In this document: positions 22,364 through 45,281 of the stretch, in pieces
Position numbering within the stretch: position 1 is the first letter of the stretch
Layout: the number at the start of each line of letters is the position of its first letter
Source of the DNA: Alphaproteobacteria bacterium
GTDB taxonomy: Bacteria; Pseudomonadota; Alphaproteobacteria; UBA2136; UBA6156
Reading direction: 5' to 3'
Assembly (NCBI GenBank): GCA_027485835.1
Contig: JAIXQG010000002.1
Span: 138,232 to 202,231 of the forward strand
DNA: 64,000 nucleotides
Program-made: the position numbers and the translations under genes
Notes under the pieces: generated by a model
The model's input: only the letters and a program-made list of their open reading frames with translations
Databases searched by the model: none
What the model was told of the DNA's origin: nothing

Positions 22364-22539
22364 GTTGTTTTTTCCTTATGATAGACCCCACGCGCGGCTG
22401 GGGTGTGCGCCGAGAACCGTTCCTCGTATAGATTTCCTTCCGTTTTAGAGGGTTAAAATGATTATAGATTCACGCATTCTAGTTATTAGTATACACAATG
22501 AATACACCAATTCAAGTATACAAATCAGTTTGGTTCCTA

Positions 22540-22572
22540 AAAAAAGGGCCCCGTGGGGCCCCTTCTCGTTGC
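22540..22572 (-). terminator. rho-independent terminator after rpoC (ggggcccc-acg-gggcccttttttt)
   Basis: Hairpin followed by T7 immediately after the rpoC stop. Confidence 0.65.
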
Positions 22573-22578
22573 GGTCTG

Positions 22579-26703
<4,125 letters not shown>

Positions 26704-26718
26704 AGTGCCAGCCTTTCT

Positions 26719-31134
<4,416 letters not shown>

Positions 31135-33637: not shown

Positions 33638-35242
33638 TTAATCCAGCTTGGCTTTTAAAGTCGCCTTGCGCAGCATGCGGGCCAGCGGAGGCACAACTTT
33701 GGCCAAACGGTCTGCCAACTGGCCCAGCAACTGGCGGCGGCTCAGCACAAACTGCATGTTCAGCACCACACCCAGCAGTGGGGCACCTACCAGCAGCAAG
33801 CTATCGGTGGCGCGCTTAAGCTCGGACTGTGTGGTGACACCCGCTTGCGCCAGCAGCAGCGTGCGAGCACTTGCAGAAGCGACAGCAACAGCATCCACAT
33901 TCCCGCGGTTCACGGCGGCCAGCGGGCTACCATCCACAATCACGATATCGGCCATGTCGGTCAGCATATCGAACAGTACCGGCAAACCACCCGCCTCGCC
34001 CAGCTTGCTCAGGGTTTCCGGATGGCGCGGTGCGGCCAGAAGCTTCATATTCTCGTTACCGGGCATGGGTTGCAAAGCATCCCAGCCGCCTTTTTTGGGT
34101 TTGGCGCCCTTCGGCAATTCCCAGTTACCATCGCCCAAGCCCAGCCATTGGCTCAGCATACGGTCACGCAGGTTCATATCGACCAGAATCACGGTTTTAC
34201 CTTGCTCAGATGTCCGTTCCGCCAACAGCAGGGCCAGCGTGCTGCTGCCTTCCGAGCCCTTCGGCCCCAAAACCACTAACGGCCCACGCAGGTTGCGCAC
34301 CAGAGAGCGGTGCAGGCGGCCGAGCTCACTGAACTCCGACGGGCGCAGCTTTTTGCCACCGGCCATCACATGCAGACCGCGCGGGGTAATATTCAGTTTG
34401 CCCAGCCACGGCAGGGTACCCACAACTTGCATATCACTGGCCTTAGTTGCGTCATCTTCACCTTCAATCACCGCACGGTTGGCAAAGGGCAGCTTTTGCA
34501 GCAAGCCGAACAGCAGGCCACCGAGCAGACCCGCCAGAATCATGTTCGCTACAACACGGGCAGTACCTTGCAGCGGCTCACTCATCGTCGCGGTTTCGGC
34601 AAACCATACCAGCGCTTGGCTCCCGTGGCGGCCAAAGGCTAAATTCACACGGCGCAGGTCGCTTTGCAGCTGCACGGTGTCGCCCTGCAATTTTTCGCTA
34701 CGGGCGTTCAATTCCAAGCGGGTCGCTTCGTCGGCACCATCGGAGGTGGCCAAACGACCGACGATTTCTTTCAGCTCCTGCTGGTTTTGCAGAATCATCT
34801 GCTCCAAGCGCATGCGCTCCGGTGCCAGCAAGGCCTGAATAAAGTTATAGGCCAGTGCATCCGTCATCTGCTCCAAACCTTCCGGCTTGGTGCTGCGGTA
34901 GCTGATGGTCATCAAATTGTTGTTAATGACGCGCAGCGAGACCTTATCGGCCTCAATCTTACGGTGTGCATCAGCACCTGTATCTGCTAGCAATTGCGGG
35001 TTGACCAAAATCTGGCGTAAAGCTTCACCCTGACCAGGCGCGCTAATACTCTGTAACAGTGGCGATTTCGCTTGATCCGACTGCACTTGCAACAAGGCGG
35101 TAGCCTCAAATGTGGGCGGCACCTGCACGCTGTAAATTGCCGCCAGCAGAGTGAACACCACTACAGGCACACCTATTTTGACGCGCACGCGCCACATTTC
35201 TGCCAATGTATTCAAGATGATATTCATAGAGCGCGCTTTCAT
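33638..35242 (-). CDS. polysaccharide co-polymerase (Wzz/GumC/ExoP-like) protein with degenerate C-terminal BY-kinase-like ATPase domain
   Basis: 534 aa with N-terminal TM + periplasmic coiled-coil + second TM topology. C-terminal P-loop-like 'VVLGPKGSEGSSTLA' lacks the Walker-A Lys (GKS->GSS). 'VILVDMNLRD' is a degenerate Walker A'. 'DIVIVDGSP' is Walker-B-like. Confidence 0.65.
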   Translation of the reverse strand: MKARSMNIILNTLAEMWRVRVKIGVPVVVFTLLAAIYSVQVPPTFEATALLQVQSDQAKSPLLQSISAPGQGEALRQILVNPQLLADTGADAHRKIEADKVSLRVINNNLMTISYRSTKPEGLEQMTDALAYNFIQALLAPERMRLEQMILQNQQELKEIVGRLATSDGADEATRLELNARSEKLQGDTVQLQSDLRRVNLAFGRHGSQALVWFAETATMSEPLQGTARVVANMILAGLLGGLLFGLLQKLPFANRAVIEGEDDATKASDMQVVGTLPWLGKLNITPRGLHVMAGGKKLRPSEFSELGRLHRSLVRNLRGPLVVLGPKGSEGSSTLALLLAERTSEQGKTVILVDMNLRDRMLSQWLGLGDGNWELPKGAKPKKGGWDALQPMPGNENMKLLAAPRHPETLSKLGEAGGLPVLFDMLTDMADIVIVDGSPLAAVNRGNVDAVAVASASARTLLLAQAGVTTQSELKRATDSLLLVGAPLLGVVLNMQFVLSRRQLLGQLADRLAKVVPPLARMLRKATLKAKLD

Positions 35243-35488
35243 TGCGTTGTGCCTCGTGGGGCTTCTTTTTTACCGAGGGCCAAAGCCCACCTTTGTTGGT
35301 TGGATATTATAGAGAGGTGCACAAGTCTGGCAATGGTGCTGCCAGACATATCGGCAACCACGATGCACAACACCTTCATACGCTTGACACTTCCGCAACA
35401 TCAGCCTATATCGCCCTCACTACACCCGCGCGTTTAGGCGTTTAGCGGTCTGTGTAGGAGTTATATCAACGAACGGAGAGTATTAGCC

Positions 35489-35920
35489 ATGGCTAAGAAA
35501 ATCGCCGGCTTCGTCAAGCTGCAAGTGCCAGCTGGCGCCGCCAACCCGGCCCCGCCCGTAGGTCCCGCTCTGGGCCAAAAGGGTTTGAACATTATGGAAT
35601 TCTGCAAGGCCTTCAACGCTGCCACCCAGCCGCCGAAGTTTGCCGCAGGCACCCCGATTCCCGTCATCATCACCGCATACGCCGACCGTACCTTCACCTT
35701 CGAGCTGAAGACCCCGCCGGCCAGCTGGTACCTGATGCAAGCCGCCAGCATTAAAAAGGGCGCCAAAACCCCGAACGTGCCGATCGGCCAAGTTAAGCGC
35801 GCTGAAGTGAAGAAAATTGCTGAAGCCAAGATGGTCGACCTCAACGCCAACTCTGTTGAGCAAGCCATGAAGATTATTGAAGGCAGCGCCCGCTCTATGG
35901 GCCTGACCGTAGTAGACTAA
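35489..35920 (+). CDS. rplK: 50S ribosomal protein L11
   Basis: 143 aa with '[43 protein letters not shown]', uL11. Confidence 0.97.
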
Positions 35921-35934
35921 GGAAGGACACGACC

Positions 35935-36642
35935 ATGGCTACTAAGAAGTCCACTAAACTCACCTCCGCCAAGCCGAAAAAGGTTTTCCCGGAGTTTGAC
36001 CGCCTGAAGGCCTACAGCCTTGATGAAGCGCTGAAGCTGCTGGCTACCATGCCGGCTGCCAAGTTCGACGAATCCGTCGACGTTGCGCTGAACCTGGGCG
36101 TAGACCCCAAGTATAACGACCAAATGGTACGTGGCGTTGTGTCGCTGCCCCACGGCAACGGTAAAACCGTCCGCGTGGCCGTGTTCGCCAAGGGCGCCGC
36201 TGCCGATGAAGCCCGTGCCGCCGGTGCCGACGTTGTGGGCCTGGAAGATCTGATTGCTCAGGTTGAAAAGGGCGACATCAACTTCGACCGTGTAATCGCG
36301 ACCCCCGACTGCATGCCGCAGCTTGGTAAAATCGCCCGTATCCTCGGCCCGAAAGGCATGATGCCGAACCCAAAGCTGGGCACCGTAACCCCCAACGTGG
36401 CCAAGGCCGTGAAGGACGTTAAGGGCGGGATGATCGAGTTCAAGGTTGAAAAAGCCGGTATCATCCACGCCGGTGTCGGCAAGCGCAGCTTCTCCTCCGA
36501 CAAGCTGGCTGCCAACATCAAGGCCTTGGTAGACGCTGTGAAGGCCGCCAAGCCCTCCGGCGCCAAGAGCAACTACCTGCTGAAGCTGGCGATTACCGCC
36601 ACTCAAGCCCCTGCCATCAAGGTAGACTTGAGCAGCCTGTAA
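35935..36642 (+). CDS. rplA: 50S ribosomal protein L1
   Basis: 235 aa uL1. Confidence 0.97.
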   Translation: MATKKSTKLTSAKPKKVFPEFDRLKAYSLDEALKLLATMPAAKFDESVDVALNLGVDPKYNDQMVRGVVSLPHGNGKTVRVAVFAKGAAADEARAAGADVVGLEDLIAQVEKGDINFDRVIATPDCMPQLGKIARILGPKGMMPNPKLGTVTPNVAKAVKDVKGGMIEFKVEKAGIIHAGVGKRSFSSDKLAANIKALVDAVKAAKPSGAKSNYLLKLAITATQAPAIKVDLSSL

Positions 36643-36738: not shown

Positions 36739-37080
36739 TTAACCGCCCGCCTTTTCCGAAAACATCTCACGCTTGTCTTCGGCGTCGAGGTCAGCCATTT
36801 CGGCAGCCTCAGGCAGCGGGCCCTTGCTTTCGGAAATATTGGGCCAAATGGCGCTATAGCGCTGGTTGAGATTGGCCCAGTGTAGCTCGTTCGGGCCAAG
36901 CTCTTCATCCGACTTAATCGCTTCAATCGGGCATTCCGGCTCGCATACTCCGCAGTCAATGCATTCGTCCGGGTTAATTACCAGCATATTCTCGCCTTCA
37001 TAAAAGCAACTGACCGGGCAAACTTCCACGCAATCGGTATAGCGGCATTTAATGCATTTTCCGGTAACGACGAACGGCAT
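36739..37080 (-). CDS. fdxA: 7Fe ferredoxin (Azotobacter FdxA-type, [3Fe-4S][4Fe-4S])
   Basis: Start at [51 protein letters not shown], preceded by an aaggagag SD. Two Cys clusters. Confidence 0.88.
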
Positions 37081-37211
37081 GATTCTCTCCTTGAATTTCG
37101 GCACATGGTTACCCTCATTCATGCCGCTTGGCAACAGGGGGCACGCTTGCTTGCAGCCTCATATGTGTGAACGCGGGACTTGCCTGCCATTTCGGGGTAA
37201 CTTACCACAAA

Positions 37212-38288
37212 ATGAAACAAAAGCGCCTGACCAGGTCTGTTTTGGCTATGCCGCACATGTTAGCGGCTTTAGCGGTGCTTTTGTGCGTGCCTGCCGCGCC
37301 AGTCTCGGCTTCCAGCGAGCTCTTTGCACCCACCGACGTCACGGTACGCTATAATCCGATTGGGTATGTGAAGAATTTTCTATTCCCCCCAAAGGCAACC
37401 GAGCAGGCCGAAGCCGCGTTACAGACCTATGCCACGATCGAACCGGCCTCCGGCGGTGCAGAACCCAAAGCCGAAGGACATGGCGAAGCCAAAGCGGAGG
37501 GTCATGGTACGTCCAAAGGTGAAGGTGGCGGCCATGGCGAACCCAAAGCTACCGGTAAAAGCGAAGGCAAGAAGAGCTTTAGTGGTAAAACCATTGGCGC
37601 TATACCCGAGCTGCCGACCGTGACTATCGGTGGCAAGTCAGTCATCAGCAAAGCCGAGCAAACTGCGAACGAACTCAATGATACCACTCCGGAAGGGATT
37701 CGCGAACCCATGATGTTACAGCATCTGGACCGGCGCTTTTCCGTGACACCCTATGCCCACAGCCCTAAGCGGGGCGCCAATGGCGCACAAATTACGGCGA
37801 TTGTCTTTACCGACTTTTCCTGTGGTCAGTGCATGCCGGAACTGACCAAGATTGATGCCGCCTTGGCAGGAGTTTCTAATACCGTGCAAACCATTCACAT
37901 CCATGCACCGATGGTGCGGTTTCAGGACACGAACATGCCGGCCTTTTACGGCAAGGTGGCGGCGCGGGGTGGCGTGTTTTGGAAATACCGTGACATGCTG
38001 CTGGCTAAGCCCACAGTTGAGGCCAACGTGTTGTTTGATAACCTGATTGCCAGCGGCATGGATGTGGCCCAAGCCCGCAGCCTGATGCTGACCGACGCAC
38101 GACGCTTTTACCGCGAGTTGGATGCCGACAGCCTGCTCGCGCGCAGCTTTGGCATCACCAACCCGCCAGTTGTGTTTGTAAATGGCATCCGTGTTGGATT
38201 TGGGGGCATCCCGTTAGAAAAATTGAAAGATGTTCTGGATTACCTGCACAAGCGTATTGAACGCGGCATGAATGAACCGCCGAAGTAA
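37212..38288 (+). CDS. secreted DsbA-like thiol:disulfide oxidoreductase with N-terminal (A/E)-K-A-E-G-H-G repeat region
   Basis: Signal peptide (MKQKRLTRSVLAMPHMLAALAVLLCVPAAPVSA). His/Gly repeats 'EPKAEGHGEAKAEGHGTSKGEGGGHGEPKATGKSEG'. C-terminal thioredoxin fold with CxxC 'FSCGQCM'. Confidence 0.68.
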   Translation: MKQKRLTRSVLAMPHMLAALAVLLCVPAAPVSASSELFAPTDVTVRYNPIGYVKNFLFPPKATEQAEAALQTYATIEPASGGAEPKAEGHGEAKAEGHGTSKGEGGGHGEPKATGKSEGKKSFSGKTIGAIPELPTVTIGGKSVISKAEQTANELNDTTPEGIREPMMLQHLDRRFSVTPYAHSPKRGANGAQITAIVFTDFSCGQCMPELTKIDAALAGVSNTVQTIHIHAPMVRFQDTNMPAFYGKVAARGGVFWKYRDMLLAKPTVEANVLFDNLIASGMDVAQARSLMLTDARRFYRELDADSLLARSFGITNPPVVFVNGIRVGFGGIPLEKLKDVLDYLHKRIERGMNEPPK

Positions 38289-38303: not shown

Positions 38304-40322
38304 ATGAGCACCTCCCTTCGCCACGCCATCAACAGTTTTAGCGAGCAATTGCAGCACCGCCAGCAAGAACGGCGCACCCAACGCATTGCCGCCACGCGTG
38401 CGGAGCAAGAAGACTCCACGACCATGGCGTCGATTCCGCTAAGCCCGGATGTAAGGGCCTTCTTCACCCATATCGCCCAAAGCGTTCAACGAGACCGCCA
38501 GCGTTACCATTTAGCTATCGCTATGGGGGTTGAGAATAGCGAACAGAACGCTGCCGCCAACGCTGTGCCAGGAGCGTTGCCAGATGAATCTCCGTTCAGC
38601 ATTGTCGAAGCTCCTGAGAATCAGGATGCCGCCGCGGTTGCACTGGCCCATGTTTCTCCCGGGCCACATGTGCTGTTGCTCTGGGATGAGTGGATGCGCA
38701 ACGAGCGCCTGATACCAAGTGTGGAAGACAGCCAAAGCATGGGCCGCAGCCCCTGCGGAGCCCTGCTGGTGGCAGAACTGAACAAACTGACGCAAGATAC
38801 TACCGCCAAACCTGCCATGGCGATGAGCCTGATTGGCAAAACCAAGCAATCGGTACAAGCGTTTCTGGATGGTCGCACCAATGACGCCGTAACCTTGCTG
38901 AAAAACGCCCTGCAGAGCGACCCCCATAACCACAGCATTCTGATGTCGCTCTCGCAAATCTCCTACTGGCTGGCGACCAAGGGTGTGCAAAACGTATTGC
39001 CGGAAGCCCGTGATTTTGCCCAACGCAGTACCATTTACAGCGAGAAACAAACTCCCTCGCAAATGGCGTTTTATCAATATACGGCGATTGTGACCGAAAG
39101 CGCCTTCGGTCCCGAGCGTACACTCGAATGGCTGCGTGACAGCGGCATGCTGAACACCGATAATTTCTCGGATAACGGAGACTCCCTGCTTGCCGAACGC
39201 GGTCTTTACCTGCGCGCTTGGTACCTGCTTTCCCAAGTACCTGTTGAGCTCTGGCATGAAGCGGAATTCCGGGCCTTGCTCAACCTCGTTACCAAAGTGG
39301 TTGGTGGGGCCACAGTGTATCTTGCATGGTTCCGTACCCCCCTGCTTACCGCAGCCAGCCTAGGGAAAGATATCCCGATTCTGGAAGAAATCGAGAGACT
39401 GGTACATAGCGCATACCGCCTGCATAGCAACCACTATACAGCCTTTCAACAACTTAGTCCGCAAAGTGGCGATAAACCGTGGTTGCTACGGGTACGCTTC
39501 TTAAGTGCTGTCAAGGCGATCATGACAGTGCCGGCTTTCGATCAGGCCGCCCTGCATTTTTCTCTCGACGGCCAGAGCTGGGAGGAGAATATGACTCCCG
39601 ACCCGGAACTGCGCGCCACCACCGGCTTGCGTGAGTTAACCTATTGGCGCCTGTGGGCACTGGTGCTTACGCCGTATAAGGATATCCGGCAACCCTACCT
39701 GATGCCGGCCGAGGAAACCGCCAGTGACCTCAGCCTACTTGCCAGTTGCGAAGAGCTTTTAACAACCCTTGCCACCACCGAACGCAACCTGATTAAAGCC
39801 CACCTGTGGGATGATTTAAAACCTTGGCTGGTGCGCTGGCAGTTAGAGCACCTGTTAGCCGCCAGCACCGGCAGTAACAAGCCCCGCAGCCGTTTTGCGC
39901 CCAGCCTGCCGCCCTACACCCATTTGTACCGTGCTTGGCAAGACCCGCCCATTTCCTCACTTTTGCCGAGCGAAATTATTGCCGAGAATGCCCGACGCGG
40001 TGCGTTTGCCAGTTTCTTTGAAATTACCGCGGCACTGGAAGGCGCCAACCGCCTGATTAACGACCCTGTGCACGGGCTGGTTGCCAGCCAGAAACGCGCT
40101 TTAGCCGCCGCCAACCGTTATAACCCGAAAAAATTCAAAACCGTCGCGCAGGAATTTGGCAGTAGCGGCGGCAGCGGGCTCCTCATGCTGCTGATGCCCG
40201 TGGGCTTGCTGGGGCTGATGGCGGCGGTGTTCACCTTCAGTGCCAACTGGGGCCAAGCACTGGGGCTTATGCTCGCGCTGGGGGGAGTGGCGGGTGTTGT
40301 GGCACTCAATCTCAAGAAATAA
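38304..40322 (+). CDS. hypothetical 672-aa protein, TPR-like alpha-helical, with C-terminal double-TM anchor
   Basis: The start codon lies 15 nt after the dsbA-like stop, so an operon is likely. No recognised catalytic motifs. The C-terminus 'LLMLLMPVGLLGLMAAVFTFSANWGQALGLMLALGGVAGVVAL' is hydrophobic. Confidence 0.55.
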   Translation: MSTSLRHAINSFSEQLQHRQQERRTQRIAATRAEQEDSTTMASIPLSPDVRAFFTHIAQSVQRDRQRYHLAIAMGVENSEQNAAANAVPGALPDESPFSIVEAPENQDAAAVALAHVSPGPHVLLLWDEWMRNERLIPSVEDSQSMGRSPCGALLVAELNKLTQDTTAKPAMAMSLIGKTKQSVQAFLDGRTNDAVTLLKNALQSDPHNHSILMSLSQISYWLATKGVQNVLPEARDFAQRSTIYSEKQTPSQMAFYQYTAIVTESAFGPERTLEWLRDSGMLNTDNFSDNGDSLLAERGLYLRAWYLLSQVPVELWHEAEFRALLNLVTKVVGGATVYLAWFRTPLLTAASLGKDIPILEEIERLVHSAYRLHSNHYTAFQQLSPQSGDKPWLLRVRFLSAVKAIMTVPAFDQAALHFSLDGQSWEENMTPDPELRATTGLRELTYWRLWALVLTPYKDIRQPYLMPAEETASDLSLLASCEELLTTLATTERNLIKAHLWDDLKPWLVRWQLEHLLAASTGSNKPRSRFAPSLPPYTHLYRAWQDPPISSLLPSEIIAENARRGAFASFFEITAALEGANRLINDPVHGLVASQKRALAAANRYNPKKFKTVAQEFGSSGGSGLLMLLMPVGLLGLMAAVFTFSANWGQALGLMLALGGVAGVVALNLKK

Positions 40323-40486: not shown

Positions 40487-40684
40487 ATGGCAAAGCGCGG
40501 TGGTAACAGCATTTTCATCAAGATGGTCAGCACAGCCCTGAAGGCTGATGGCAAGAAGACCGGTTACTTTTACGTAACCCGTAAGAACCCGAAGAGCGTG
40601 AACACCACCGAAAAGCTGGAAATGCGCAAGTACGACCCGGTTGTTCGCCAGCACGTCATCTTCAAAGAAGAAAAGATGAAGTAG
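40487..40684 (+). CDS. rpmG: 50S ribosomal protein L33
   Basis: 'MAKRGG...[40 protein letters not shown]' matches bL33. Confidence 0.9.
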
Positions 40685-40712
40685 TCGTTCTTACTTGATT
40701 GCAGGGGCCAAC

Positions 40713-40740
40713 ATGGCCCCTTTTTTGTTGCGCAGCAATT
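40713..40740 (+). terminator. rho-independent terminator after rpmG (ggggcc-aacat-ggcccc + T6)
   Basis: Read directly from sequence. Confidence 0.6.
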
Positions 40741-40783
40741 TTATGAGGTATACAAACAGGTTCTCGCCTTTCAGGAGGAACAC

Positions 40784-41074
40784 ATGATCTCGTCTACTGA
40801 AAACTTTGTTATTTCGTGCAATGACGTACCCGTCATCCTGTTTCTCTCCGATGTGGGAGGAATTCAGGGCCATGTGGTCACCGAATTGAACAAAACGGCC
40901 AACAGGAAGTATCCGCAACTCACGCCGCTGATCAAGGCCCATTACTTAGGGGATCAGGTTGTCGGCGATTTGCCCGTTGTTAAGTTGGCAACGCCTCAAG
41001 ATAAGGATGCCGCCATTACTTCCGCTGAGGAATGGCTGGAGAATCACTTCAGCTTGACAGCCTCCCTTCTCTGA
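40784..41074 (+). CDS. hypothetical protein (96 aa)
   Basis: Near-perfect SD (caggaggaacac ATG). A terminator hairpin lies at 41088-41115. No family recognised. Confidence 0.45.
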   Translation: MISSTENFVISCNDVPVILFLSDVGGIQGHVVTELNKTANRKYPQLTPLIKAHYLGDQVVGDLPVVKLATPQDKDAAITSAEEWLENHFSLTASLL

Positions 41075-41125
41075 TACAATCCCACACGATATGCGAAGGC
41101 GCCCCTTACGGGCGCCTTTACGCGT

Positions 41126-41923
41126 TTAGAGTGTCAATTCCAGTACCACCGGAATATGGTCGGACGGTTGTGTTTTGGTGCGTTCGTCCTGGTCGTGCCA
41201 GACATGTGTAACATGCGGCGTGAGTGTGGGGCTGGTAAAGAGGTAGTCAATCCGTGCACCGTTCTTCGGGTTACGGCCGTAGGTGCGGTAGTCGTACCAT
41301 GAGTAGATGCCTGCTTCGGCATTCACTTCACGAAAGCTGTCAGAGAGGCCATTGTTAACCATCAGCTCGGCCAGCCACTGGCGCTCTTCCGGCGTGAACA
41401 GCACGTGTTTTGCGGCTTTTTCGGGGTTCTCAATGTCGCGCTCGTCGGCCGAGATATTAAAATCGCCGCAGATGATGTAACGCGCGTGCTCGGCAAGCCC
41501 ACGCTGCACATAGGCTTGCAGGTGCTGGTAAAATTCGCGCTTGAAGGCGAATTTTTCACTGGTCGGGCTTTCGCCATTCGGCACATAGGCGCTCACCACG
41601 CGGATGCCGCAGGTGGTGGCGGCTATCAGGCGGCTTTGGCTGCCAAATATTTCCGGCAGGCCTTCGGCACCAAAACCCGTTGCGATATGTTCCAGTGGCT
41701 GGCGGCTGGCGATGGCGACGCCGTTGTACGACTTCTGGCCGTGCATAGCTACGTGGTAACCTAGGCTGGTAAAGGCTTCGGTGGGGAACAGGCTATCTTC
41801 AACTTTGGTTTCCTGCAGGCAGAGAATATCCGGCCGATGGGCCTCTAACCACGCGGTAACATGGGGCAGGCGTGTACGAAGGCTGTTGACGTTCCAGGTG
41901 GCGACTTTTATGACTGATGACAT
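41126..41923 (-). CDS. xthA: exodeoxyribonuclease III (AP endonuclease, EEP family)
   Basis: Start at MSSVIKVATWNVNSLRTRLPHVTAWLEAHRPDILCLQETK. The longer upstream ORF extension is rejected. Confidence 0.9.
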   Translation of the reverse strand: MSSVIKVATWNVNSLRTRLPHVTAWLEAHRPDILCLQETKVEDSLFPTEAFTSLGYHVAMHGQKSYNGVAIASRQPLEHIATGFGAEGLPEIFGSQSRLIAATTCGIRVVSAYVPNGESPTSEKFAFKREFYQHLQAYVQRGLAEHARYIICGDFNISADERDIENPEKAAKHVLFTPEERQWLAELMVNNGLSDSFREVNAEAGIYSWYDYRTYGRNPKNGARIDYLFTSPTLTPHVTHVWHDQDERTKTQPSDHIPVVLELTL

Positions 41924-42236
41924 GACCCACTTTAGCAAACCTGCGCCGCTGACGCGAGAGGCCCTGCAAGCCTTATTGGCACCCGCCCTGCCCGGCGCGC
42001 GTTTTGATATGCGCGACGACACCCATAAGCACCTTGAGCACAACATTGAGGTCGACCACCATGGCGCTCACTTCTTTGTGAAAATCGTGTGGGATGGTTT
42101 TAAAACCTTACCGCGCCTCGCCCGGCACAGGCTGGTTTTCAACTTGTTAACCCAACAGTGGAATGCCAAACAAATCCATTCGTTAAGCCTGCGTTTAATG
42201 ACTGAAGAAGAGGCGACAAAGACATTGCGCGAGTAG
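41910..42236 (+). CDS. bolA: BolA family protein
   Basis: 'FDMRDDTHKHLEHNIEVDHHGAHFFVKIVWDGFKTLPRLARHRLVFNLL...IHSLSLRLMTEEE' matches the BolA fold motifs. Its start overlaps the xthA start divergently. Confidence 0.72.
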   Translation: MTDDMTHFSKPAPLTREALQALLAPALPGARFDMRDDTHKHLEHNIEVDHHGAHFFVKIVWDGFKTLPRLARHRLVFNLLTQQWNAKQIHSLSLRLMTEEEATKTLRE

Positions 42237-42269
42237 ATTTGGTGAGCCCTCTGCGGCTACACTTGGTTT

Positions 42270-44336
42270 ATGGCATTTGTGCTTCCATCGGGTTTGACTG
42301 ACCGCATCGCGGGTATTTCTACCGTGCGCTGGCTTATGCTTTTGGCCATATGGGGCATCGCGGTATTCTTATGGGGCACTTTTGGCGCGTGGACCGAGAA
42401 ACGCGGACAAGATGCCGAGCTTCGTTTAGTAACCCCCTATGCCGAACGTGTGGGAGCGTGGCTCACCCAGCAAACCGATATTCTGGACAGCCTGCAAACC
42501 GATACGCGTCTGGCCGAAGGTGCCAGCTTGCCTGCGGGCGTGGAAAGCTTGCCGGTGCAGCGTGTGCTATATGAATTCGCGTACCTCAACCGCATACCGG
42601 ACGTTTATATTCTCGACCTGTTGCAAGGTAAAAACGGCCGCACGGCAGGCGCTGTTGCGCTACCAGAAACCACCTTGAAGCGCTTTGACAGCCTGCCGGA
42701 TCGCGCCGATACGCTGATGCTCGGGCTGGGGTTAGACCGTGCGCAATTGCTGATGCTGCGGCGTGTGAACGCCCCCCTGCCCCAGAAGCTTTATGCGGCT
42801 GTGCCTGTACGGTTCAGCACCCTTGCCAATGCCGTGCCGACTCTGCCGGAGACCTTTCAGGAGCGGACTTCAAGCCTGATTTTCCCCCATACCGAGGGGT
42901 GGGCCCGCTGGAATATGAAAGGGCCGCAGTTAAACTTGATTGAGGAAGAGACCGAAGGTTTAGGCTCTGACGAGGTTGTGCACATCACCACCGGTTCGCG
43001 CCAAACCACCTATGTGCCACTCGGGGGATTACCGGCTGTTGTTCTGGCGGTGGAAGGCCCGCGTGCGCTTACCTCCACTGCCCTATTACCGCGGCTGATG
43101 GTGTTTATCTGGGCCGTCACCATGAGCTTGATGGTATTATGGCAAGAGCCCGGTTTTCAAAAACTACTGGCACAAAGCACCGCCCCCGTTAAGCCCCTTC
43201 TCGGCAAACTTGCACCGTTGGGGGCCCGCATGAAAGGGCTTGGCCGGCTTTTGCCCGTTGACCAGATTGCCCGCGCCTGGCGCGATGCGCGCGGTACGGC
43301 CCCCTTGGTAGAAGGACCCGGCGAGCTTGATGCCAGCGCCTTCCGTTCCTCACCACGGCGTGCATCATCGGGTAAATCTCCGCGAAAGCCTATGTTAAGT
43401 GCACCCGCGCCGGCCGAGTTGGCAACGGCCGGCCCCGGCGCGTTACCTAAACTGGAGCGCCGCAACCGCCGCCGCGGCAGTGCCTTGGCGGCAACTCCTT
43501 CTCGTCCCCACAGCCAAAACGCCAAACCGGCGTGGGTTTCTCCGGAAAAGAAAGCTCCCAAACCTATCTCCTCTCAATCGAGCGACTCTCAGCCCGCGAT
43601 TGATGAGGAAGACTTGCTGGAAGTGGTGAAGGACTGCCTGCGCCAAAAACGGGTTAAGTTGCTGTACCAGCCTGTATATCGCGCCGCCGACAACATGCCG
43701 ATGATCCACGAAGTGTTCGCGCGCCTGGTACGACGCGATGGCAGCCTGATCTCGCCAGGCGACTTTTTGCCAATTGTGTTGAAAAACAAGCTTTCGCTCG
43801 AGCTGGACCTGATGGTGCTGCGCAAAGTGGTGCAGGAGCATTTTGGCCAAGGCCGCGAGCCGCTAACTCCCCTTGCCGTCAATATTTCCAGCAACAGCCT
43901 TGATGGTATTGCCTACCTGCAGGAAATGACCAGCCAAGGCCCACGCGTGCTGCGCCGGATGGGTTTTGAAGTAAGTAGCCAAGAGATGATACGTGACCCC
44001 AAAGCTCTGAAACTTCTCAAAGATTTGCAAAAGCATGGTGGCAATCTGGCGGTCGATTACTTTGGCGGTGGAGAAGCCATGCTGGATGCCAGCAAATCGC
44101 TCGGTTTCAACTACGTGAAGCTCGATTCCGCCAAGTTCATCGAAACGGATGAGGGCAAGAAGAACCTCATCAAGCTGTGCCACTATGCCAATTCCATCGG
44201 GCTACCGATTATTCTCGAAAAAATCGGGCATCGGGATACGGAGGAGTTCGGGCGTCGTGCGGGGGCGCAATTCCTGCAGGGTTATGCCCTGAAAAGCCCG
44301 GATGAAATGCTAACGCTGACGCAATTGGCATCGTAA
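42270..44336 (+). CDS. membrane-anchored sensor protein with C-terminal degenerate EAL domain
   Basis: N-terminal TM + periplasmic region + second TM. The EAL-like C-terminus carries 'EVFAR', 'DYFGGG' instead of DDFGTG, 'EKIG' instead of EGVE, and 'KLD'. Confidence 0.78.
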   Translation: MAFVLPSGLTDRIAGISTVRWLMLLAIWGIAVFLWGTFGAWTEKRGQDAELRLVTPYAERVGAWLTQQTDILDSLQTDTRLAEGASLPAGVESLPVQRVLYEFAYLNRIPDVYILDLLQGKNGRTAGAVALPETTLKRFDSLPDRADTLMLGLGLDRAQLLMLRRVNAPLPQKLYAAVPVRFSTLANAVPTLPETFQERTSSLIFPHTEGWARWNMKGPQLNLIEEETEGLGSDEVVHITTGSRQTTYVPLGGLPAVVLAVEGPRALTSTALLPRLMVFIWAVTMSLMVLWQEPGFQKLLAQSTAPVKPLLGKLAPLGARMKGLGRLLPVDQIARAWRDARGTAPLVEGPGELDASAFRSSPRRASSGKSPRKPMLSAPAPAELATAGPGALPKLERRNRRRGSALAATPSRPHSQNAKPAWVSPEKKAPKPISSQSSDSQPAIDEEDLLEVVKDCLRQKRVKLLYQPVYRAADNMPMIHEVFARLVRRDGSLISPGDFLPIVLKNKLSLELDLMVLRKVVQEHFGQGREPLTPLAVNISSNSLDGIAYLQEMTSQGPRVLRRMGFEVSSQEMIRDPKALKLLKDLQKHGGNLAVDYFGGGEAMLDASKSLGFNYVKLDSAKFIETDEGKKNLIKLCHYANSIGLPIILEKIGHRDTEEFGRRAGAQFLQGYALKSPDEMLTLTQLAS

Positions 44337-44405
44337 CCACCGGCTACCGGAGCGAAGCGTTATTTTGGCAATGACAAAGCCCCTTCCTAAGTATACGATT
44401 AACCC

Positions 44406-45281
44406 ATGACTGACTTGCAGAAGGTTGACCCCGTCGCCGAATTTACCCGCCAGACGCCGCTGGATTTGCGGCTGGTGATGGCGTTGGCTGGCGAGCGCGA
44501 CCTGAATGCGCGCGAGCAGCAGATTGTCGATAAGCTTCAGCAAGAGCGTGGCGAAGGCTTGTTCTCCGACATGCTATATGCCCTCACCCGCAAGAGCTTC
44601 CCCAGCCGCCAAGCTAAGCTGCTGTGGGCGGAAATTGGCGACCATAGAAAGAAGCTGGAAGGCATTTTAAGCCGCGACCCCGGTGTGGCGCTGGCGGCGC
44701 ACGATTATCTGGTGAACGTGAGTGGCCTCCTCAAAACTGCCGGACTGATTGAAGAGCAGAAGTTTCAGGCGCTGGCCACCGTGGCCAGCCGCGACGGTCT
44801 GACCGGCCTTTATGACAAAACCACCTTTGCCCGCCTGCTGGAAGAAGAGCTGGCGCGCCAAGCCCGCTTTGGCCGACCCGTGACGCTGGTGATGATCGAC
44901 ATCGACCACTTTAAGCAACTGAACGACACCCACGGCCACGCCGATGGCGACGTGGTGCTGGCACAGGTAGCCGAGCTGATTAAGCTGCAAGCCCGTAGCA
45001 CCGATAGTTGCGGCCGCTTTGGCGGCGAAGAGTTTGCCGTGGTGCTGCCGGAAGTGGACACCCACGCCGGTACGCTGCTGGCAGAACGTATCCGTATGGG
45101 AGTGGAAAAGGCTTTTATCGGTACACCTTACAGCGTGACCGTGAGCATCGGGATTGCCACGGGCAATAGCGGTGTGAAGGCTGATGATCTTGTGCGTGCC
45201 GCCGACGCCGCGCTGTATGAAGCCAAGCGTGGTGGACGCAATTGCGTGCGGGTGGCGAAGGAAATTGTGACGACTGTCTAA
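44406..45281 (+). CDS. GGDEF-domain diguanylate cyclase
   Basis: Active-site 'GGEEF' with an I-site 'RSTD' five residues upstream. N-terminal ~120-aa domain of unknown function. Confidence 0.88.
   Translation: MTDLQKVDPVAEFTRQTPLDLRLVMALAGERDLNAREQQIVDKLQQERGEGLFSDMLYALTRKSFPSRQAKLLWAEIGDHRKKLEGILSRDPGVALAAHDYLVNVSGLLKTAGLIEEQKFQALATVASRDGLTGLYDKTTFARLLEEELARQARFGRPVTLVMIDIDHFKQLNDTHGHADGDVVLAQVAELIKLQARSTDSCGRFGGEEFAVVLPEVDTHAGTLLAERIRMGVEKAFIGTPYSVTVSIGIATGNSGVKADDLVRAADAALYEAKRGGRNCVRVAKEIVTTV

Follow-up and report, generated by a model that had tools for sequence, protein, structure and literature searches.

What is the role of a thioredoxin-like gene that lies back to back with a ferredoxin gene, and whose product carries a repetitive Glu-, Gly- and His-containing segment ahead of its catalytic domain? 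This question is raised by a locus within a 64,000-nucleotide stretch of alphaproteobacterial DNA (GenBank assembly GCA_027485835.1, contig JAIXQG010000002.1, positions 138,232 to 202,231), hereafter referred to as the window. We call this gene and its protein X, and the gene downstream of it Y. A first-pass annotation, made from the nucleotide sequence, had interpreted X as a secreted thioredoxin-fold protein coupled to metals through a His-Gly repeat. This interpretation is partly supported by the present analysis. X is probably a Sec-exported periplasmic thiol-disulfide oxidoreductase of the DsbA/Thioredoxin_4 class that belongs to a divergent, unnamed subfamily. Coordinates of all features are listed in Table 1.

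Fold and active site of X

Assignment of X to thioredoxin-fold proteins depends on whether X is considered alone or together with its relatives. Searched alone, X stays below hidden Markov model (HMM) thresholds. In Pfam, PF01323 reaches 16.4 bits where 25.6 are required (E=0.0083), and does so only over the C-terminal third, and PF13462 is not matched; NCBIfam yields just a weak match to a thioredoxin-like lipoprotein, and phmmer search of PDB sequences gives E ~0.2. On the family level, on the contrary, the fold proposed earlier is well supported. We found 64 homologues of X, 45 of which were aligned (alignment A1). Thioredoxin_4 (PF13462) is matched by 26 of these 45 at E<=0.01 (best 3e-10), and the profile of the alignment retrieves BdbD (4.9e-5) and Corynebacterium DsbA (7.8e-5) from PDB, with BdbD/DsbA chains overall ranging from 5e-5 to 2e-4. 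In the profile alignment, Pro-Pro of the family (P319) falls on the Thr-Pro cis-Pro loop of BdbD.

The AlphaFold 2 (AF2) model built from the same alignment has a predicted local distance difference test score (pLDDT) above 90 over approximately residues 150-350. Its elements follow in the order strand-CxxC-helix, helical insert and cis-Pro-strand, the first helix running from residue 207 and strand 320-323 coming right after P319, which is expected to adopt the cis conformation. Foldseek search of PDB with this model returned 3gyk, BdbD, ScsC, alpha-DsbA2 and MdbA, with E down to 3e-8 and TM-score (TMt) of 0.79. The CGQC motif reported in the first pass is present at residues 204-207. None of 57 sequences drawn from both tiers of the family (see below) deviates at C204, C207 or P319, and the dipeptide enclosed by the two cysteines occurs in 24 variants in the same set. 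Taken together, family-level and structural evidence, the latter derived from the model, is decisive for assigning X a predicted DsbA-like domain. X has the structural and active-site characteristics of the DsbA-like superfamily, yet falls outside every curated sequence family.

Breadth of the family

When 1.84 billion representatives (clusters at 50% identity) were searched exhaustively with the family profile, 176 clusters were obtained at E<1e-30, a number that includes unrelated multi-domain DsbA-like proteins. The full N-terminal module of X was detected in about 18 clusters. A second tier is formed by secreted proteins of 240-300 amino acids (aa) that lack the module (ELF...IEPASG) and mostly also the linker. 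What these proteins retain is the DsbA core with its hairpin and both family-specific motifs described below, and those of their loci that were examined retain fdxA and Y. All named members of the family come from uncultured Alphaproteobacteria. In the literature searched, no description of the family was found.

Many proteins retrieved at lower rank by the family profile (range P0105-P0236) are 600-1200 aa long (P0105 has 1163 aa) and consist of 3-6 tandem DsbA/Thioredoxin_4-like domains, each of them with a CPFC motif. These tandem multi-domain proteins appear to be unrelated to the X family.

Gene start and export signal

The open reading frame (ORF) assigned to X in the first pass is borne out in its boundaries, strand and length. 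Two observations back its start codon: P0002 and P0005 share the conserved MKQ(K/M)RLTRSV sequence, and translation from this ATG gives the signal peptide its basic n-region. In the public annotation, the gene (P0001, 346 aa) begins 12 codons further downstream, at MPHM (37248).

At the N-terminus of X, a basic n-region (MKQKRLTR) leads into a hydrophobic stretch, residues 8-35, with a Kyte-Doolittle value of 2.13, and a cleavage-type site, VSA/SS, is present as well. Signal peptides are conserved among X homologues, and this holds for both tiers. The protein is therefore predicted to be Sec-exported to the periplasm, in agreement with its earlier designation as secreted; the prediction is read from hydropathy and the cleavage-type site. 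The possibility that X is a lipoprotein was ruled out, since the signal-peptide cysteine (LLC followed by V) has Leu at position -1 and is not conserved.

Domain architecture

The clade-specific N-terminal module is marked by a conserved ELFxxTxVTxRY sequence and two short predicted helices (49-57 and 62-75); its pLDDT is low except over residues 50-70, where it is about 82. It ends with the near-invariant IEPASG motif, in which P78, A79 and G81 are invariant. Beyond the linker follows the short motif [TH]GKSEGxKSFxGK, conserved though predicted to be disordered.

The catalytic domain is preceded by an elaboration peculiar to the family and found in both tiers. Its parts are a beta-hairpin with the sequence LPxVTIGG (137-144), two helices (147-158 and 166-173) and a YAHSPxRG motif, the histidine of which (H183) is shared by 90% or more of the sequences. 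A Sco-like Cys2His site formed with H183 was considered and rejected on inferred topology, which places this residue in the loop that leads into beta-1, at the opposite end of the sheet from CxxC. Two further motifs are specific to the family: QDTNMPAFYGKVA (residues 238-250; family form QDTN(M/L)(P/A)AFYGKxA) and ARRFYRELDAD (residues 296-306). If the topology of DsbA is taken as a guide, both would flank the active site, the former in the loop after beta-3 and the latter in the helix before the cis-Pro loop.

Repeat array and variability of the linker

The first-pass annotation correctly recognised a low-complexity Glu/Gly/Ala/Lys/His segment ahead of the catalytic domain. The array within it reads EPKAEGHG / EAKAEGHG / TSKGEGGGHG (degenerate) / EPKA-TGKSEGKK and contains three histidines in all. 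The repeat unit is 8 aa (24 nt) long, and Tandem Repeats Finder (TRF) reports 2.0 copies at 37461-37507. The first two units are 79% identical, and a repeat search revealed an additional copy with 67% identity at 37539-37562. The DNA period of about 36 nt claimed earlier proved wrong; the best match at this period is 17/36, compared with 19/24 at period 24.

The repeat exceeds chance. Its DNA score was reached by one of 500 codon shuffles, and seven identical adjacent residues out of eight by none of 500 whole-protein and none of 2000 linker-only shuffles. Since copies 1 and 2 differ mostly synonymously (four synonymous changes and one non-synonymous), we conclude that their duplication is not recent and that the peptide was maintained.

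The segment between IEPASG and [TH]GKSEG was surveyed in the 45 aligned homologues. Its length varies from 2 to 63 aa. In the nearest relatives (72-80% identity), it measures 16, 23, 24, 29 or 32 aa, the number of GH(G) motifs being two or three. A single copy, within HGEAKSEGGGHGEPKA, is found in P0003, which at 80% identity to X is the nearest of the relatives that have a short linker. The constant part of the linker is its last unit, G-H-(G)-E-P-x-A, situated directly before [TH]GK. Comparison of these sequences indicates that the array of X is a lineage-specific tandem triplication of the conserved EG(G)HG-EPKA unit. As linker length is free to vary and the array expands this very unit, the repeat is a local expansion of a length-variable tether and not a defined repeat domain. 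Orthologues, to which the first-pass annotation had pointed as a check, give a divided answer: the tandem copies are peculiar to the lineage, but the EG(G)HG-EPKA motif itself is kept.

Histidine accounts for 6.7% of linker residues and for 1.9% elsewhere in the proteins (3.6-fold enrichment), and 56 of 75 linker histidines have a glycine neighbour, compared with 26 +/- 3.8 in within-linker shuffles, though relatedness of the linker sequences makes these statistics overstate independence. At least one histidine is present in 37 of the 45 linkers and none in 8; their count varies from 0 to 5 and their positions are not alignable. The linker of X has three histidines among its 32 residues (9%), spaced by 8 and 10 residues; HH and HxH are absent from it, as are Met and Cys. 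In typical His-rich metal-capture segments, histidine commonly exceeds 20% and forms HH/HxH clusters. The repeat of X, presented earlier as a typical metal-binding His-Gly module, falls short of the usual definition of a His-rich one, its histidines being neither dense nor clustered.

Conserved neighbourhood of X

Position of fdxA next to X and in divergent orientation, noted in the first pass, was confirmed (Table 1). Loci for comparison were taken from public contigs and metagenome-assembled genomes (MAGs), with X identities down to 35%. The order fdxA (minus strand), X, Y (about 650-710 aa) is found in about 20 distinct loci, without exception among those long enough to show it, and holds even in L006, L025/L026 and L027, though their wider flanks are entirely different. 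Likewise, fdxA, Y and rpmG are neighbours of X in every locus whose contig reaches that far. The gap between X and Y is -4 to +16 nt in 21 loci, which points to translational coupling; in the window, Y starts 16 nt after the X stop codon. The first convincing terminator is located at 40703, after rpmG, and there is no terminator-like site between Y and rpmG.

Two promoter-like elements in the region shared by fdxA and X are conserved among most of the related loci. The sequence TTGGCAAC (37128-37135) reads on the minus strand as a TTGCCA -35-like box directed toward fdxA. The second element, a -10-like G[CG]TA[AG]nnT (here GGTAACTT, 37196-37203), ends 8 nt ahead of the X start codon, and no Shine-Dalgarno sequence is present. 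This suggests that X mRNA may be leaderless or near-leaderless and transcribed from a putative promoter with an alphaproteobacterial-type -10 box. A generic sigma-70 scan detected nothing in this intergenic region. Conservation of the two elements offers a possible non-functional reason for the linkage of fdxA to X. Consequently, the "redox neighbourhood" suggested earlier holds as far as the strongly conserved adjacency is concerned, but evidence of a functional redox link was not found.

The Y protein is more conserved than X. It has two C-terminal transmembrane helices (621-648 and 649-671) joined by a SANWGQ turn that is at least 90% conserved in an alignment of 30 Y sequences; about six residues of Y face the periplasm. 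Since Y combines this C-terminal hairpin with the lack of a signal peptide, its bulk is presumably cytoplasmic. No family match above threshold was obtained in Pfam or NCBIfam and no sequence relative in PDB, and the model structure of Y gave just generic matches to tetratricopeptide repeat (TPR) proteins. Across 22 orthologues of Y, no alignment column has Cys in 50% or more of the sequences, and no histidine is invariant. A role of Y as a Cys-based thiol relay of DsbB or DsbD type was rejected as unlikely on these grounds.

Proposed function and alternatives

We propose that X catalyses thiol-disulfide exchange on envelope proteins. C204, located where helix alpha-1 begins, and C207 would form the catalytic pair facing the putative cis-Pro P319, and X would act like an enzyme of the DsbA/BdbD/ScsC class. 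The conserved NxxAFYGK and ARRFYRELDAD motifs, by their presumed place beside the active site, speak for a specific client or partner surface rather than a general-purpose one. The disordered Ala/Gly/Glu/Pro/His linker may tether the catalytic domain to the clade-specific N-terminal module, and would have grown in this genome by tandem duplication of EG(G)HG-EPKA to three copies. N-terminal extension, flexible linker and DsbA-like domain are also combined in the oligomeric isomerases ScsC, LpDsbA2 and alpha-DsbA2 (PMC6450060; PMC10907172). Because of this shared layout, we lean towards X being a tethered, perhaps oligomeric isomerase-like enzyme or a dedicated folding catalyst rather than a general oxidant; both oligomerisation and the direction of electron flow are presumed here from the likeness.

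Several observations weigh against this proposal. X reaches no curated HMM threshold in Pfam or NCBIfam. No gene of DsbB, VKOR, DsbD, ScsB, CcdA or BdbC type was recognised among the identified neighbours. The CxxC dipeptide is so variable that redox potential and direction of the reaction cannot be guessed from it. The predicted N-terminal helices are short and of moderate confidence, and second-tier homologues keep Y without having the module, which argues that oligomerisation is not the core of the function. Finally, a purely neutral tether leaves the enrichment of Gly-flanked linker histidines unexplained.

This last point favours a metal-coupled oxidoreductase, in which linker histidines would capture Cu, Zn or Ni and pass the ions to the CxxC site or shield them from it. 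X would then take part in copper or metal stress, or act as a metallochaperone, similarly to the part played by ScsC in copper tolerance. Such a role, which we regard as unlikely, would account for the enrichment described above and for retention of at least one histidine in most linkers despite extreme turnover by insertions and deletions. Further, HGK is added just downstream of the linker in many relatives, the linker is acidic, and ScsC proteins are among the structural neighbours of X. For Caulobacter ScsC, Cu(I) binding of subpicomolar affinity is reported (reference 118 of PMC10907172), and disordered His-rich periplasmic segments that capture metals are described for CopI (PMC13308877) and PA4063 (PMC8561739). 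Nevertheless, histidines are dense in the CopI N-terminus, the PA4063 loops and the ZnuA loop, while those of the X linker are sparse, unclustered and unaccompanied by Met or Cys. The linker lacks histidine in 8 of 45 homologues and is itself mostly missing from the second tier, relatedness of the sequences inflates the apparent independence of the histidine statistics, and neither a metal transporter nor a copper-resistance or ScsB-like gene was identified among the neighbours. Sequence similarity of X to ScsC is insignificant as well (E 0.2-0.7). Evidence for metal binding is weak at present. Alternatively, X could be an ordinary general DsbA oxidant with a repeat that is a meaningless low-complexity or chance feature and with a functionless N-terminal extension. 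Length variability and predicted disorder of the linker are compatible with this, as is the presence of the oxidases BdbD and MdbA among top structural matches. We nonetheless hold it to be quite improbable, given that the repeat exceeds shuffles and its copies differ mainly at synonymous sites, that IEPASG and [TH]GKSEGxKSFxGK beside the linker are highly conserved, and that conserved family-specific surface motifs are atypical of a general oxidant.

The gene order invites yet another explanation. FdxA, X and Y might form one module linking the cytoplasmic redox or metabolic state to periplasmic thiols, with Y as a membrane coupler, which would represent a new kind of DsbD/DsbB-like arrangement. 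Persistence of the three-gene order at X identities down to 35% and amid different flanks, translational coupling of X and Y, and conservation of the periplasmic SANWGQ turn are all in its favour. On the other side, Y has no conserved Cys or His and no match to a cofactor-binding family, its structural matches are generic TPR proteins and nearly all of it is expected in the cytoplasm, and the conserved divergent promoters may hold fdxA in place without any functional link; the chances of such a module are therefore low. There is a similarly slim chance that the three proteins constitute an undescribed envelope module of another sort, belonging to a deep, uncultured alphaproteobacterial lineage, in which the conserved but disordered GHG/GKSEG segment of X binds metal or docks at the membrane hairpin of Y and thus couples thiol chemistry to metal status or to a TPR scaffold, unlike DsbB, DsbD and ScsB. 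Any contact between X and Y is presumed in these schemes.

If X is indeed an exported thiol-disulfide oxidoreductase, it represents a divergent and unannotated DsbA-class subfamily of unusual architecture, in which a conserved N-terminal module is joined to an elaborated catalytic domain by a hypervariable His/Gly/Glu linker. The subfamily would give access to envelope protein folding in lineages that only metagenomes have revealed, as well as a small natural experiment on the evolution of linker length and histidine content in tethered oxidoreductases. The finding opens no long-standing question; it concerns an ordinary enzyme class in an unusual, undescribed variant. In our opinion, what deserves most interest is not the repeat, a minor lineage-specific expansion, but the invariant association of fdxA and X with the uncharacterised Y.

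Comparison with known systems

The top Foldseek match, Silicibacter pomeroyi 3gyk ("27 kDa outer membrane protein"; E and TMt given above), is an alphaproteobacterial DsbA of Thioredoxin_4 type. It consists of one domain of some 175 residues, lacks the extension and shares 17% identity with X. Bacillus subtilis BdbD (3eu3/3eu4; Thioredoxin_4, PF13462) is likewise only about 17% identical. It has Thr-Pro where X has Pro-Pro, and lacks some 150 N-terminal residues that form the module, disordered linker, hairpin and helices of X. BdbD partners the membrane oxidase BdbC, whereas no BdbC-like partner was seen next to X.

ScsC is represented by structures from Caulobacter crescentus (7rgv), Proteus mirabilis (4xvw/5id4/6nen) and Salmonella (4gxz). 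Similarity of X to ScsC sequences is not significant (6mhh, 6nen, 4xvw and 4gxz; phmmer E=0.21-0.3, profile E=0.6-0.72). ScsC is encoded together with scsB, the product of which is a DsbD-like reductant, in the scs locus; the neighbourhood of X contains no scsABD or ScsB-type gene, and X is coupled to Y, unrelated to the ScsC system. Proteus and Caulobacter ScsC have a long trimerising helix, in place of which the monomeric AF2 model of X shows the two short helices followed by 40 disordered residues. Identification of X as ScsC was rejected for want of an scs locus and of significant sequence similarity, and the apparent lack of the long helix agrees with this. In Wolbachia pipientis alpha-DsbA2 (6eez), the N-terminal region is helical and 50 residues long. 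It differs from X by the lack of a low-complexity His/Gly linker and of IEPASG and GKSEG motifs, and by a different genomic context.

Table 1. Features of the X locus and of a neighbouring gene (window coordinates)
Feature	Position	Strand	Basis or remark
Wzz-like protein, 534 aa	33638-35242	-	N-terminal Wzz (chain-length determinant) domain match only, E=2.8e-8
fdxA, 7Fe-type ferredoxin	36739..37080	-	NCBIfam FdxA_Protbact E=4e-46; Pfam DUF3470 and Fer4
Divergent intergenic region fdxA/X	37081..37211	.	By-eye comparison, 20 loci
X, ORF	ATG 37212 to TAA 38286-38288	+	358 aa
X, predicted signal peptide, residues 1-33, MKQKRLTRSVLAMPHMLAALAVLLCVPAAPVSA followed by SSELF	37212..37310	+	Hydropathy; conserved start and AxA-type sites in relatives
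X, clade-specific N-terminal module, residues 34-81	37311..37454	+	Alignment, AF2
X, variable disordered linker, residues 82-113, GAEPKAEGHGEAKAEGHGTSKGEGGGHGEPKA	37455..37550	+	TRF, repeat search, shuffles, pLDDT 36-43
X, linker tandem units	37461-37484, 37485-37508, 37509-37538; then EPKA 37539-37550	+	Repeat searches
X, short linear motif [TH]GKSEGxKSFxGK...P, residues 114-133	37551..37610	+	Alignment; pLDDT 43-63
X, family-specific N-terminal elaboration of catalytic domain, residues 134-185	37611..37766	+	AF2 pLDDT 77-94
X, DsbA-like catalytic domain, predicted thioredoxin fold with inserted helical domain	37767..38285	+	AF2, alignment
X, CGQC, C204/C207	37821-37832 (residues 204-207)	+	Sequence
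X, putative cis-Pro P319	38166-38168	+	Alignment, model
Y, predicted to be co-transcribed with X, 672 aa, all-helical TPR-like, no signal peptide	38304..40322	+	Hydropathy, model, alignments

Other features of the window

A stop-free ORF of 2827 aa (22498-30981, plus strand) is antisense to rpoC (22579-26703, minus strand) and rpoB (26719-31134, minus strand) and spans both genes with their spacer. It is probably a codon-usage "shadow" ORF, unusually long for a sequence that does not look obviously GC-rich by eye. Search with Rfam detected no family at gathering score in the 64 kb, no tRNA, and no ribosomal-protein leader upstream of rplK-rplA or rplJ-rplL.

The block consisting of the Wzz-like gene, rplK and rplA (33638-36642) is inverted in the window and in the sister MAG (L009) relative to 14 related loci. 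In those 14 loci, rplA and rplK are on the same strand as rpoB and the Wzz-like gene is directed to fdxA. In most of the related loci, fdxA and the ribosomal protein genes have the Wzz-like gene between them.

Downstream of Y, at 40487-45281, most related loci share with the window the order rpmG, an Exo_endo_phos gene (minus strand) and genes for an EAL protein and a GGDEF protein. In other related loci, BolA sits between the phosphatase and the EAL gene.
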